The notes below the pieces were generated by a model. That model was not told where the DNA came from, did not search any database, and saw only the letters and a list, made by a program, of their open reading frames with translations. A stretch of 64,000 nucleotides of DNA from Shigella phage A2, in the sequence record OP197928; one strand, 5' to 3'. Numbering within the stretch: position 1 is the first letter of the stretch; each line of letters starts with the position of its first letter. The position numbers were made by a program, and so were the translations under genes. Positions 42,351 through 46,594 of the stretch are shown piece after piece.

Positions 42351-42629
42351 TCAAAATGTAATTTCTAACCAATCACCATCACGCTGATCACTATTGACTT
42401 TAAAGCTGAATCCTTCTTTTCTCAGCCAATCACCAATTTCTTCAGTAATCAATTTATCGCGAGCAGTACAATAATAACTAAAATATGTTTTACCTTGTTC
42501 AGCTGCTTTATTAGCAAGTTCTGAAAAATCTTTAATAAAACACTCTAGCTTAAACTGTTTACTTTTTAATGCTTTTTCACGTAATTGATTAGCAAAAGAT
42601 TCATTTTCATAAAGATCATACTGTTCCAT
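42351..42629 (-). CDS. hypothetical protein (24.2 position)
   Basis: 92-aa ORF. Confidence 0.55.
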   Translation of the reverse strand: MEQYDLYENESFANQLREKALKSKQFKLECFIKDFSELANKAAEQGKTYFSYYCTARDKLITEEIGDWLRKEGFSFKVNSDQRDGDWLEITF

Positions 42630-42831
42630 TTTTCACCTTTTTATTAATATGTCTTTTTCTATAGACAACTTTTTCTCGAGTTTCAAATTTATTCTTAGCA
42701 GTCATAGCTCGAGCCCATAATACAGCCACTTCTTTCGCCTGTAAGTTTAATTCACGAGCAATTTCAATGAATGACTTTCCAGACTCATGAAGAGTAAACA
42801 CCACAACCTCAGTTCTCATAATCAATCTCAT
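42616..42831 (-). CDS. hypothetical small protein, possible HTH (24.3 position)
   Basis: 71-aa ORF; segment GKSFIEIARELNLQAKEVA resembles a helix-turn-helix. Confidence 0.5.
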   Translation of the reverse strand: MRLIMRTEVVVFTLHESGKSFIEIARELNLQAKEVAVLWARAMTAKNKFETREKVVYRKRHINKKVKNGTV

Positions 42832-42899
42832 GTTATCGAGTTGGTGCCATTATATACATCATTTTCTGATTGTGTTTTGTGTGCTTTCAAAATGAAGAA

Positions 42900-42915
42900 A
42901 GGGGCCGAAGCCCCT
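42900..42915 (-). terminator. UUCG-tetraloop hairpin terminator downstream of hoc
   Basis: aggggccgaagcccct (on minus RNA AGGGGC-UUCG-GCCCCU) followed by U-rich tract; identical 16-mer also at 1907-1922 and 63554-63569. Confidence 0.6.
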
Positions 42916-42920
42916 TATGA

Positions 42921-44342
42921 TTATGGATAGGTATAGATGATACCAGTTTCTAAAGCAGTTTTATGAATGATGTATCCATTACGTGATTCTTGAACATCAA
43001 CTTCTGGATAGTCTTTCATCATCTTCTGAAGCGTATAACGATGCAAGTAGTATTTACTATCTGGATCGTCAGTTTTCCAATCTTTACCTTCTTCGGTCAT
43101 TTTTTGGATTTCATCCATAACCCACCAACCACACCAGATGTAAGCTGAAGTACGATGTGGAAGAGGATGAACATAAGGTAATTCACCTTCTGGCTCTGGA
43201 GCAACTTTATCAGTTACCTGAACTTGACCTTCCGCCGTAATAGTTTTGCTATCATAATCAGCAGCAGCAGTAACAGTTGCAGTAACTTCAATAGTTTGAC
43301 TTCCAATAGATGAGGTATCAACGGTATATACATTAGTTGACCCTTCTACAGGAGAAGAATCTTTCTTCCATGAATACGCAATTTGCGCTTCTTCTGGAGC
43401 ATCAGTGACATTAGCAGTAAATGTAGCCGAAGCATCTTGTTGAACGTTAATAGAAGGAGGAGTCAATGTAACCTGTGGATTCATTGTCTTCTTATTAACT
43501 GTTAATGATACTTCATTCGAAGTAACTTCCTTTTCATTGTAATTTTCAGCAGTTACTTGGGCTACGCATTTAATTCTTTTTACTCCACTTGTAGTTGGAG
43601 TATAGCTAAATGTAGAGTTAGTTTCTCCACCAACTTGTGAATCATCTACATACCACTGATACGTAGCAGATGCTCCATCAGGTTGAGAAGCTAAGGCAGC
43701 AGTAAATTGAACTGGTGTTCCAATTACTCCAGCTGAAGGACTATCGGGAGTTACTGCCAAAGTAGTTGTCTGTGTCTTTTTATTAACAGTCAATGACACT
43801 TCATTAGAAGTAACTTCTTTTGCATCATAATCTGTCGCGGTTACTTGAGCCACACACTTGATTGTTTTAACTCCGCTTGTGTCAGGAGTGTAATTGAATG
43901 TAGCGCTAGTCGCTTCGCTCACAGGAGAACCGTCAACGTACCATTGATACGTAGCAGATGCGCCTGATGGCTGCGAAGCCAAAGCAGCGGTAAATTCAAC
44001 AGCTGTTCCGATTACTCCTTCCGGAGGACTATTAGGAGTTACGGCTAAGGTAGTCGTCTGTGTCTTATTTTGAACTGTGATAGTTGTACTAATTTCAGCT
44101 GTTTCGGGACTACTATCGGCAACTTGATTTGTTGCAACTACTTTAATAGTCTTTTGACCGGCAGGTCCTTTTAATACATAACTAAAAGTTGCTTCAGCTC
44201 CATCTTGTGGAACATCATCAACAGTCCAAGCATATGTAATAGGTCCATCTCCAGTTTGACCACTGGGCGTAGCAGTAAACTGCTGAGTCTGATCTATAAC
44301 TCCAGTAGGTGTTTTAGGAGTTATATCAACTGTAAAAGCCAT
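42921..44342 (-). CDS. hoc: highly immunogenic outer capsid protein Hoc, 4 Ig-like domains
   Basis: 473 aa (T4 Hoc is about 376 aa); four Ig-like repeats of about 96 aa then a capsid-binding C-terminus; repeats 2 and 3 are near-identical. Confidence 0.9.
   Translation of the reverse strand: MAFTVDITPKTPTGVIDQTQQFTATPSGQTGDGPITYAWTVDDVPQDGAEATFSYVLKGPAGQKTIKVVATNQVADSSPETAEISTTITVQNKTQTTTLAVTPNSPPEGVIGTAVEFTAALASQPSGASATYQWYVDGSPVSEATSATFNYTPDTSGVKTIKCVAQVTATDYDAKEVTSNEVSLTVNKKTQTTTLAVTPDSPSAGVIGTPVQFTAALASQPDGASATYQWYVDDSQVGGETNSTFSYTPTTSGVKRIKCVAQVTAENYNEKEVTSNEVSLTVNKKTMNPQVTLTPPSINVQQDASATFTANVTDAPEEAQIAYSWKKDSSPVEGSTNVYTVDTSSIGSQTIEVTATVTAAADYDSKTITAEGQVQVTDKVAPEPEGELPYVHPLPHRTSAYIWCGWWVMDEIQKMTEEGKDWKTDDPDSKYYLHRYTLQKMMKDYPEVDVQESRNGYIIHKTALETGIIYTYP
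43485..44066. repeat. tandem direct repeat, 2 x 291 bp, inside hoc (duplicated Ig-like domain)
   Basis: Units 43485-43775 and 43776-44066 align along their whole length with many substitutions; encode KTQTTTLAVTP[D/N]SP...EVTSNEVSLTVNK twice. Confidence 0.8.
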
Positions 44343-44351
44343 AAGTTATCC

Positions 44352-45032
44352 TTATTTTAATGTTACGAAAGAAGAATTGCGTGTTTCACGAATTAAAACT
44401 GATCCGTCACGGTTAATGTAATAAATTAAGCTAAATAATGTTTGGTGTGCAGAAGCATGCTCAAAACTAGTTGGGTGAGATTTCCAATCCGGAGTTTCAG
44501 CGATCCATTGATAAATCCACCAAGGAACAGTACAGAATCCTGGATTTTTTCCAATCAACTGAAGATTCGGGCTAAAGTTTTCCGGAAGAGTAAATACAGA
44601 CGGCTTTTCAGATTCAATAATCTCAGCTACAGCCTGTTCGAATTTTTCTTCAACAAAAGGAGTATCTTCAATCAAAACATCGGTATTTTCAGGAATTTTA
44701 TCCGTTTCTACTACTTCAATTTTAATGTCAGATTTAACTGGAGAATCAATCAAAAGTGCTGCTTCTGGATTGACTTCTTCATCGTCATATTTTAATCCCT
44801 CTGCAGCATCAGCAGCATCAATTAAGTCTTTAATAGATAACCCATCAGTCTCTGGCATAGGTTCACTAGCGAGCTTCTGGAGGGCTTCTTCAATATCAAC
44901 AACGATATTATCAAAAGATTTATTCTTTTTGACCTTTATACCAAACTGTTCAGCATATTCAGCTAATTTAGCTTTAGCTTCTTTATTATCATCAAGAGCC
45001 TTCAGCTCTGCAATATAATCTTTATCTATCAT
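44352..45032 (-). CDS. inh: inhibitor of prohead protease
   Basis: 226 aa; position between hoc and uvsW. Confidence 0.85.
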   Translation of the reverse strand: MIDKDYIAELKALDDNKEAKAKLAEYAEQFGIKVKKNKSFDNIVVDIEEALQKLASEPMPETDGLSIKDLIDAADAAEGLKYDDEEVNPEAALLIDSPVKSDIKIEVVETDKIPENTDVLIEDTPFVEEKFEQAVAEIIESEKPSVFTLPENFSPNLQLIGKNPGFCTVPWWIYQWIAETPDWKSHPTSFEHASAHQTLFSLIYYINRDGSVLIRETRNSSFVTLK

Positions 45033-45045
45033 AATATTTCCTCAG

Positions 45046-45053
45046 TATAAATA
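45046..45053 (+). promoter_or_regulatory. late promoter TATAAATA upstream of uvsW
   Basis: exact TATAAATA 30 nt upstream of uvsW ATG. Confidence 0.5.
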
Positions 45054-45082
45054 TAGATATATTTATTACATGGTATTTAGAC

Positions 45083-46594
45083 ATGACTGACATTAAAGTA
45101 CATTTTTATGATTTTAGTCACGTGAGAATTGATTGTGAAGAAAGTACATTTCATGAACTCCGTGATTTCTTTAGCTTTGAAGCTGATGGGTATCGTTTTA
45201 ATCCGAAATACAAATATGGCCACTGGGATGGACGAATCCGTCTTTTAGATTATAATCGTCTTCTTCCATTCGGCTTAGTCGGGCAAATTAAAAAGTTCTG
45301 TGATAACTTTGGCTATAAAGCCTGGATTGACCCACAAATTAACGAAAAAGAAGAATTATCAAGAAAAGATTTTGATGAATGGCTTTCTAAATTAGAAATC
45401 TATTCAGGAAATAAAAGAATTGAACCACACTGGTATCAAAAAGATGCAGTGTTCGAAGGATTAGTCAATCGTCGTAGAATTCTTAATCTTCCAACATCCG
45501 CTGGTAAATCGTTAATTCAAGCTTTGCTTGCGCGATATTATTTGGAAAATTATGAAGGTAAAATTCTTATCATTGTTCCAACAACTGCTCTAACAACTCA
45601 GATGGCTGATGACTTCGTTGACTATCGTTTATTCAGTCATGCAATGATAAAGAAAATTGGTGGCGGAGCATCAAAAGATGATAAATATAAAAATGATGCA
45701 CCAGTCGTTGTTGGTACATGGCAAACTGTAGTAAAACAACCGAAAGAATGGTTCTCACAGTTTGGAATGATGATGAATGATGAATGCCATCTTGCTACAG
45801 GAAAAAGTATTTCATCTATCATATCAGGTTTAAATAACTGTATGTTTAAATTTGGTTTGTCTGGTTCATTACGTGATGGCAAAGCTAATATCATGCAGTA
45901 TGTTGGAATGTTTGGTGAAATATTTAAGCCAGTAACGACCTCTAAATTAATGGAAGATGGACAAGTAACTGAGTTAAAAATTAATAGTATTTTTCTTCGC
46001 TATCCCGATGAGTTCACTACTAAATTAAAGGGAAAAACTTACCAAGAAGAAATAAAAATTATTACGGGGCTTAGTAAAAGAAATAAATGGATCGCTAAAT
46101 TAGCTATTAAGCTTGCGCAAAAAGATGAAAACGCTTTTGTCATGTTTAAGCATGTATCACATGGTAAAGCTATTTTCGATTTAATTAAAAATGAATACGA
46201 TAAAGTTTATTACGTATCAGGGGAAGTTGATACCGAAACCCGCAATATAATGAAAACCTTAGCTGAAAACGGTAAAGGAATAATTATAGTAGCTAGTTAT
46301 GGTGTATTTTCTACTGGTATTTCAGTTAAAAATCTGCATCACGTTGTTTTAGCACACGGTGTTAAATCTAAAATTATTGTATTGCAAACAATAGGTCGCG
46401 TATTACGTAAGCATGGTTCTAAAACAATCGCAACAGTCTGGGACCTCATCGATGATTGTGGTGTTAAGCCAAAATCTGCTAATACGAAAAAGAAATATGT
46501 TCATTTGAACTATCTTTTAAAACACGGCATTGATCGTATTCAGCGCTACGCAGATGAAAAATTTAATTACGTAATGAAAACAGTTAATTTATAA
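45083..46594 (+). CDS. uvsW: UvsW DNA/RNA helicase (SF2)
   Basis: 503 aa; Walker A TSAGKS, DEAH-like DECH box, helicase motif VI QTIGRVLR. Confidence 0.95.
   Translation: MTDIKVHFYDFSHVRIDCEESTFHELRDFFSFEADGYRFNPKYKYGHWDGRIRLLDYNRLLPFGLVGQIKKFCDNFGYKAWIDPQINEKEELSRKDFDEWLSKLEIYSGNKRIEPHWYQKDAVFEGLVNRRRILNLPTSAGKSLIQALLARYYLENYEGKILIIVPTTALTTQMADDFVDYRLFSHAMIKKIGGGASKDDKYKNDAPVVVGTWQTVVKQPKEWFSQFGMMMNDECHLATGKSISSIISGLNNCMFKFGLSGSLRDGKANIMQYVGMFGEIFKPVTTSKLMEDGQVTELKINSIFLRYPDEFTTKLKGKTYQEEIKIITGLSKRNKWIAKLAIKLAQKDENAFVMFKHVSHGKAIFDLIKNEYDKVYYVSGEVDTETRNIMKTLAENGKGIIIVASYGVFSTGISVKNLHHVVLAHGVKSKIIVLQTIGRVLRKHGSKTIATVWDLIDDCGVKPKSANTKKKYVHLNYLLKHGIDRIQRYADEKFNYVMKTVNL

Follow-up and report, generated by a model that had tools for sequence, protein, structure and literature searches.

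A doubled Ig-like domain 2 in the capsid fibre protein Hoc of Shigella phage A2 is one state of a copy-number polymorphism across Tequatrovirus

The capsid decoration gene hoc of Shigella phage A2, which lies in the 64,000-nucleotide stretch of sequence record OP197928 analysed here (hereafter "the window"), is very probably the common two-copy allele of Tequatrovirus, encoding domain 1, two paralogues of domain 2, domain 3, and a capsid-binding domain, with a domain 2 pair that is old. The pair is one state of a polymorphism across the genus in which one, two, or three copies of domain 2 occur. The 376-aa Hoc of phage T4 serves as a model in studies of mucus adherence by phages and as a scaffold for vaccine display, and against this reference the longer gene had first been read as a notable enlargement in this phage. 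The core of that original prediction holds, in that the window Hoc carries one more Ig-like domain than T4 by way of a tandem repeat of domain 2, while the doubling itself is ordinary, being old and common to about a third of sequenced relatives.

The 473-aa open reading frame on the minus strand is Hoc, the head outer capsid decoration protein of T4-type phages, as had been proposed. It matched T4 Hoc in the PDB (5vf3_Z) at E = 9e-219 in a phmmer search, with the best stretch reaching residue 473, and its C-terminal domain and gene order are those of T4. In both the window and T4 (NC_000866), rnlB-24.2-24.3-hoc-inh are all encoded on the minus strand, with hoc lying between inh and 24.3/rnlB in the late head-gene region and homologues of T4 24.3, 24.2, and rnlB following downstream on the same strand. 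The 20 kb around hoc are 97-98% identical to several Tequatrovirus genomes (e.g., Sf24 and KRT47), which identifies the source as an ordinary T4-like phage of this genus, and the gene shares 98.6% nucleotide identity with hoc of phage AdolfPortmann. T4 hoc is 1131 nt long and encodes 376 aa (NC_000866), so the reported length difference (473 versus about 376 aa) was correct, and T4 does not share the longer form. The features at the locus are as follows:

42899..42916, minus strand: terminator-like GC-rich hairpin, AAGGGGCTTCGGCCCCTT then TCTTCATTTT, beginning 5 nt past the hoc stop
42921..44342, minus strand: hoc, capsid decoration fibre; open reading frame of 473 codons plus a TAA stop
44352..45032, minus strand: inh; open reading frame at the T4 inh position, upstream of hoc and ending 9 nt before the hoc start

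In a consensus scan, the hairpin 3' of hoc comprised seven pairs, five of them G-C, and a T-rich tract follows it. Pfam Phage_Inh_N/C matched the equivalent inh gene of Escherichia phage UGKSEcP2 (L023), and hoc and inh are probably co-transcribed. Upstream of neither hoc nor inh does the minus strand contain the exact T4 late-promoter motif TATAAATA; a candidate there, AATAAATA at 45060-45067 (minus strand), has one mismatch to it and lies 27 nt before the inh start codon. An exact TATAAATA is present on the plus strand at 45046-45053, where it precedes uvsW (45083-46594, plus strand), and the gap between inh and uvsW is only 50 nt (45033-45082). The GIY-YIG homing endonuclease gene segE, located between inh and uvsW in T4 (NC_000866 112057-112674), is absent from the window. 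No plus-strand open reading frame of at least 60 aa overlaps hoc. At the T4 24.3 position, the open reading frame at 42616-42831 (minus strand) encodes 71 aa from its first ATG, T4 24.3 being 171 nt (56 aa), and its true start may be an internal codon.

The window Hoc consists of four Ig-like domains and a capsid anchor, five domains in all, compared with three plus one in T4; the four Ig-like domains originally counted hold if the C-terminal domain is left out. From the N terminus, the domains are:

44067..44342, minus strand: domain 1, Ig-like, residues 1-92; 76/92 residues identical to T4 domain 1
43779..44066, minus strand: domain 2 copy 1 (alpha lineage), residues 93-188; the unit missing from T4
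43491..43778, minus strand: domain 2 copy 2 (beta lineage), residues 189-284; assigned as the orthologue of T4 domain 2
43206..43490, minus strand: domain 3, Ig-like, residues 285-379; 82/94 residues identical to T4 domain 3
42924..43205, minus strand: C-terminal capsid-binding domain, residues 380-473; 93/94 residues identical to T4 Hoc 283-376

Several lines of evidence agree on this architecture. A phmmer query with T4 domain 2 recovered two full-length units (1-96) in the window Hoc at 143 and 172 bits, the first of them (residues 93-188) scoring 142.9 bits across all 96 aa, and domains 1 and 3 gave weak matches to the same unit (23-25 bits; 24.7 for domain 1). The C-terminal domain is homologous to the capsid-binding region of T4 Hoc (residues 281-376). 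Among Pfam families, PKD matched copy 2 (residues 195-267, 3.3e-10) and Ig_3 matched domain 3 (residues 289-353, 7.1e-07), both above the gathering score, and BiPBP_C also matched. AlphaFold, supplied with an alignment of 47 homologues, predicted four beta-sandwich domains (residues 1-91, 93-188, 189-284, and 285-378) with pLDDT of 85-96 overall, 82-93 for domain 1, and 90-96 for domain 2 copy 1; the C-terminal domain was modelled poorly (pLDDT < 50) and the inter-domain geometry is unreliable. In the PDB, Foldseek matched best to proteins with four Ig domains in a row, Dscam1 and ICAM-5 among them (E about 1e-13).

The excess of 97 aa over T4 is made up of the 96-aa repeat plus one Ala in domain 3. 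Domain 3 carries (GCT)3 at 43260-43268 (minus strand; Hoc residues 357-359), amounting to one extra Ala: the sequence reads TAAADYD here versus TAADY or TATDY elsewhere, which leaves a single gap in the alignment to T4 domain 3. All 120 listed homologues lack this codon. It resembles a private slippage of one triplet and is the reason why the window Hoc has 473 rather than 472 aa, all two-copy proteins among these 120 homologues being 472 or 468 aa long.

At the nucleotide level, Tandem Repeats Finder found a single array of 2.0 copies with a period of 288 at 43485-44066 (77% matches, score 689), and a repeat search paired 43485-43772 with 43773-44060 at 76% identity and a spacing of 288. In domain register, the copies occupy 43779-44066 and 43491-43778, and the repeat is in frame; similarity between the copies extends 6 nt further because domain 3 also starts with Lys-Thr. 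The in-frame tandem repeat described earlier at 291 bp thus exists as two in-frame copies, with a period of 288 bp (96 codons), and of the copies then placed at 43485-43775 and 43776-44066 the outer limits are right, the 291 + 291 split being one codon out of register. The units have conserved ends, opening with KTQTTTLAVTP and closing with SNEVSLTVNK. The description of the two domains as "almost identical" has to be abandoned, as copy 1 and copy 2 share 75.7% nucleotide identity and 76 of 96 aa and are clearly diverged.

Doubled forms are widespread among relatives. Long and short hoc genes were told apart by the length that each match spans in its record, using the 60 top rows of the GenBank matches and 60 rows taken at even intervals, since the similarity summary merges the paired matches of a short gene to give 100% coverage and its counts cannot separate the classes. 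In each of the best 60 of 684 matching phage records, the match is one unbroken stretch of about 1419 nt; of the roughly 50 full-length rows in the evenly spaced set of 60, 17 are long and the others span 1131 nt. This 60-row sample, which is no census, suggests that about one in three sequenced Tequatrovirus genomes carries two-copy hoc; RB27, AR1, Yersinia phage PST, and the slur phages are among them. Protein homologues, taken as the best 120 clusters (90% identity) from a search of 5.8 billion proteins, fall into three length modes: 376 aa (76 clusters plus 5 near-variants), 472 aa (29 clusters plus 1 of 468 aa), and 567-570 aa (9 clusters). Counting the window, T4, and the 120 listed clusters, one, two, and three domain 2 units are present in 82, 31, and 9 sequences, respectively. 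In the proposed comparison of Hoc length across relatives, this protein is longer than that of T4 and falls next to a common 472-aa class.

Three tandem domain 2 units were observed at L023:571-1452 (Escherichia phage UGKSEcP2, OV876900) and in proteins P0001-P0008; in the DNA of OV876900, Tandem Repeats Finder gave a period of 288 and 3.1 copies. The lineage of the third unit also forms the 3' part of some single-copy units. Among the other records, MG010123.1 (32,172 bp), named Staphylococcus phage SAJK-IND, contains a full two-copy Tequatrovirus hoc with 93.5% identity to that of the window and is probably mislabelled or contaminated. Odd hoc spans were seen in OR757454 (BYEP02; 1496 nt in two pieces), OR757453 (BYEP01; 852 nt in three pieces), and KX452698 (KNP5; 2072 nt in two pieces), which suggests further rearranged, truncated, or interrupted hoc alleles.

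The two copies have different closest relatives. Copy 2 shares 91% of nucleotides and 88 of 96 aa with T4 domain 2, including a central 160 nt that are 100% identical, and copy 1 shares 78.5% of nucleotides with the same T4 domain. Copy 1 lies at pS 0.19-0.32 from the first copies of the relatives L002 and L023 and the single unit of L005, and across the window, L002, and L023 the first copies group together, as do the second copies. On these distances, T4 domain 2 has its orthologue in copy 2, and copy 1 is the orthologue of the first copy of other long Hocs and of the single domain 2 of some short Hocs. The window accordingly has the arrangement that defines the two-copy class, an alpha-type followed by a beta-type 96-aa unit between domains 1 and 3.

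The units are also highly mosaic. Variation affects 30 of the 96 positions, which assort in many combinations and lie more often in predicted loops (20/48) than in predicted strands (10/48; Fisher p = 0.047). Single-copy units are alpha-type (L005), beta-type (T4 and L003), or patchworks (T4, L004, and L024), in which alpha and beta stretches alternate when read in 36-nt windows. Painting of the lineages by diagnostic residues was dropped, since the mosaic nature of the units left only three positions consistently diagnostic at a 75% threshold, and lineage was assessed instead by segment haplotypes, half-unit nearest neighbours, and DNA windows. That single-copy alleles are patchworks of two lineages fits repeated unequal recombination. 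Mechanistically, unequal homologous recombination together with gene conversion between units would shift alleles among the copy-number states, with the conserved unit ends supplying the homology.

How the pair arose can be read in more than one way. To the view that two copies are ancestral for the genus, and that single copies of the T4 type are secondary deletions by unequal crossing-over, we would give a little less than an even chance. Some single-copy phages carry the copy 1 lineage and others, T4 among them, the copy 2 lineage, so the short form of T4 may be derived; such a history would account for single-copy phages with alpha (L005), beta (T4, L003), or patchwork (L004, L024) units. 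Some single-copy haplotypes, moreover, join an alpha start (GSPDA PIE) to a third-copy-type end (GSLVDGETTT..TV ENYNEKEVT). An N-terminal half like a first copy and a C-terminal half like a last copy were combined in 17 of the 82 single-copy units, and the reverse in 2, a polarity expected from deletion, although this count is no statistical test and is suggestive only, since the 90%-identity clusters are phylogenetically related and thus non-independent. In parts of the T4 unit the polarity is reversed, and frequent gene conversion obscures the history. Furthermore, no outgroup polarises the change, sister genera being mostly single-unit, and Klebsiella phage Marfa made a duplication of its own in a different domain.

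Alternatively, and with rather lower probability, the pair may have come from unequal recombination between two diverged single-copy alleles, one alpha and one beta, in a mixed infection. Both lineages exist today as single-copy alleles, the conserved unit ends offer homology for the exchange, and T-even phages recombine heavily, as illustrated by the tract of complete identity to T4 inside a 91%-identical unit. However, such a fusion would push the alpha/beta split back in time without explaining it, and with present data it makes the same predictions as an ancestral pair.

A recent tandem duplication peculiar to this phage lineage, and hence a new enlargement of Hoc, is very improbable. In its favour, the two units lie side by side in one frame with the same length, and the reference phage T4 has only one. 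Yet nucleotide divergence between the window copies amounts to 24%, and the Nei-Gojobori method gives pS 0.65, dS about 1.5, dN 0.12, and dN/dS 0.08, synonymous sites being near saturation. In two other phages, dS from first to second copy is 0.86 and 1.22, as against 0.16-0.42 for orthologous copies of different phages. Near-saturated synonymous sites and a dN/dS of 0.08 together indicate that the doubling is old and that both copies are under purifying selection; by these estimates, the tandem pair is much older than the divergence of the phages compared. The number of GenBank phages with the same ordered pair is well above 100 and is estimated at some 200 (RB27, PST, and AR1 among them), and the distance from copy 1 to first copies elsewhere (pS 0.30-0.32) is smaller than that to the copy beside it. 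A recent duplication of domain 2 is refuted by dS and positional orthology, and the idea of a notable enlargement in this phage is not supported either, given also that about a third of GenBank Tequatrovirus records have two copies, as do 31 of the 120 best-matching protein clusters, that three-copy forms exist, and that single-copy phages carry either lineage. As for an assembly artefact, ~290-bp tandem repeats can collapse or expand when assembled from short reads, but the chance of this here is negligible and we reject it, because copies diverged by 24% are easily told apart in reads, the reading frame is intact, and the architecture recurs in many independently sequenced genomes.

With an old pair in a common two-copy allele as the preferred reading, the window Hoc can be set beside known forms. 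It shares locus and neighbours with T4 Hoc (PDB 5vf3, 8t1x; NP_049793), and both proteins are acidic, with calculated pI of 4.44 and 4.74 for the window and T4, respectively. T4 domain 2 is 92% identical in amino acids to window copy 2 and 81% to copy 1; what T4 lacks is the 96-aa copy 1 between domain 1 and the T4-like domain 2, and the extra Ala. The 472-aa Hocs (AdolfPortmann MZ501046, teqhal, slur02/04, RB27, PST, and AR1) have the same five domains and the same order of paralogues, and their genes are 89-98.6% identical to that of the window, differing in length only by the private GCT and otherwise by allelic substitutions. The 568-570-aa Hocs (Escherichia phages UGKSEcP1 and UGKSEcP2, OV876900) use the same unit and register; units 1 and 2 of UGKSEcP1 and UGKSEcP2 are orthologous to the two window copies, and their third unit, which the window lacks, represents another lineage, at pS 0.40-0.49 from the other units.

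Hocs that differ in domain number (PNJ-9, Muldoon, and Marfa) share with the window a conserved capsid-binding domain and a variable Ig string, in which other domains have been gained or lost. The Hoc of Klebsiella phage Marfa (MN044033 / NC_048798; L007:1154-1726), from a different genus, contains a two-copy tandem with a 282-bp unit and 76% identity, in which domain 3 (KKTMSGVSV...TITK twice) rather than domain 2 is doubled. The closest relatives of Marfa have the single form, a 1134-nt hoc, and its duplication is independent and parallel. Variable Ig-domain number in Hoc is already published, and long alleles annotated as Hoc stand in many public records: Hoc homologues have between one Ig-like domain and the ten of Serratia phage Muldoon, and these domains differ greatly even among close T4 relatives (PMC10385173), and PNJ-9 has a Hoc variant without domain 3 (PMC11853027). 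Our literature search, whose coverage did not extend to Sathaliyawala 2010 and Fokine 2011, returned no explicit account of the one-, two-, and three-copy forms of domain 2.

In T4, Hoc attaches as a monomer by its C-terminal domain at the centre of every gp23* hexamer, a binding that has been solved structurally, and forms an acidic fibre of about 180 A with four domains in total, for which a role in reversible adhesion and pH-dependent clustering has been proposed (PMC10385173). From the near-identical capsid-binding domain, we infer that binding at the gp23* hexamer centre and dispensability for infectivity would extend to the window Hoc. One monomer would sit at the centre of each gp23* hexamer by way of the nearly invariant C-terminal domain, as in T4, and project an acidic string of Ig-like domains from the capsid. 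With four Ig-like domains rather than three, the fibre would be ~45 A longer than that of T4, a figure that is arithmetic and not measurement, given the poorly modelled C-terminal domain and unreliable inter-domain geometry. Such a fibre, with two domain 2 modules, possibly has greater reach or valency; the change in fibre reach originally proposed is a reasonable expectation. In PNJ-9, residues S183/L184/T185 of Hoc domain 2 were reported to bind MUC2 fucose (PMC11853027). The corresponding SLTVNK is kept in both domain 2 copies here (residues 183 and 279); the motif was mapped in a Hoc without domain 3, and this difference in architecture makes its transfer to the window Hoc conjectural.

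Taken further, the domain 2 array might act as a recombination-driven adhesin module of variable copy number, with the unit ends as crossover sites, that tunes reach or glycan valency to mucosal or bacterial surfaces and that is contracted in T4; we offer this as a speculative and rather doubtful extension, and the literature search found no paper treating the array as such a recombination-tuned module. If it were true, phage populations would repeatedly lengthen, shorten, and reshuffle their capsid fibre. Together, these findings indicate that a large share of natural T4 relatives carry a longer Hoc fibre than T4 itself, with domain 2 doubled or tripled, and that comparisons of adhesion among T4-like therapeutic phages should record the hoc length class.
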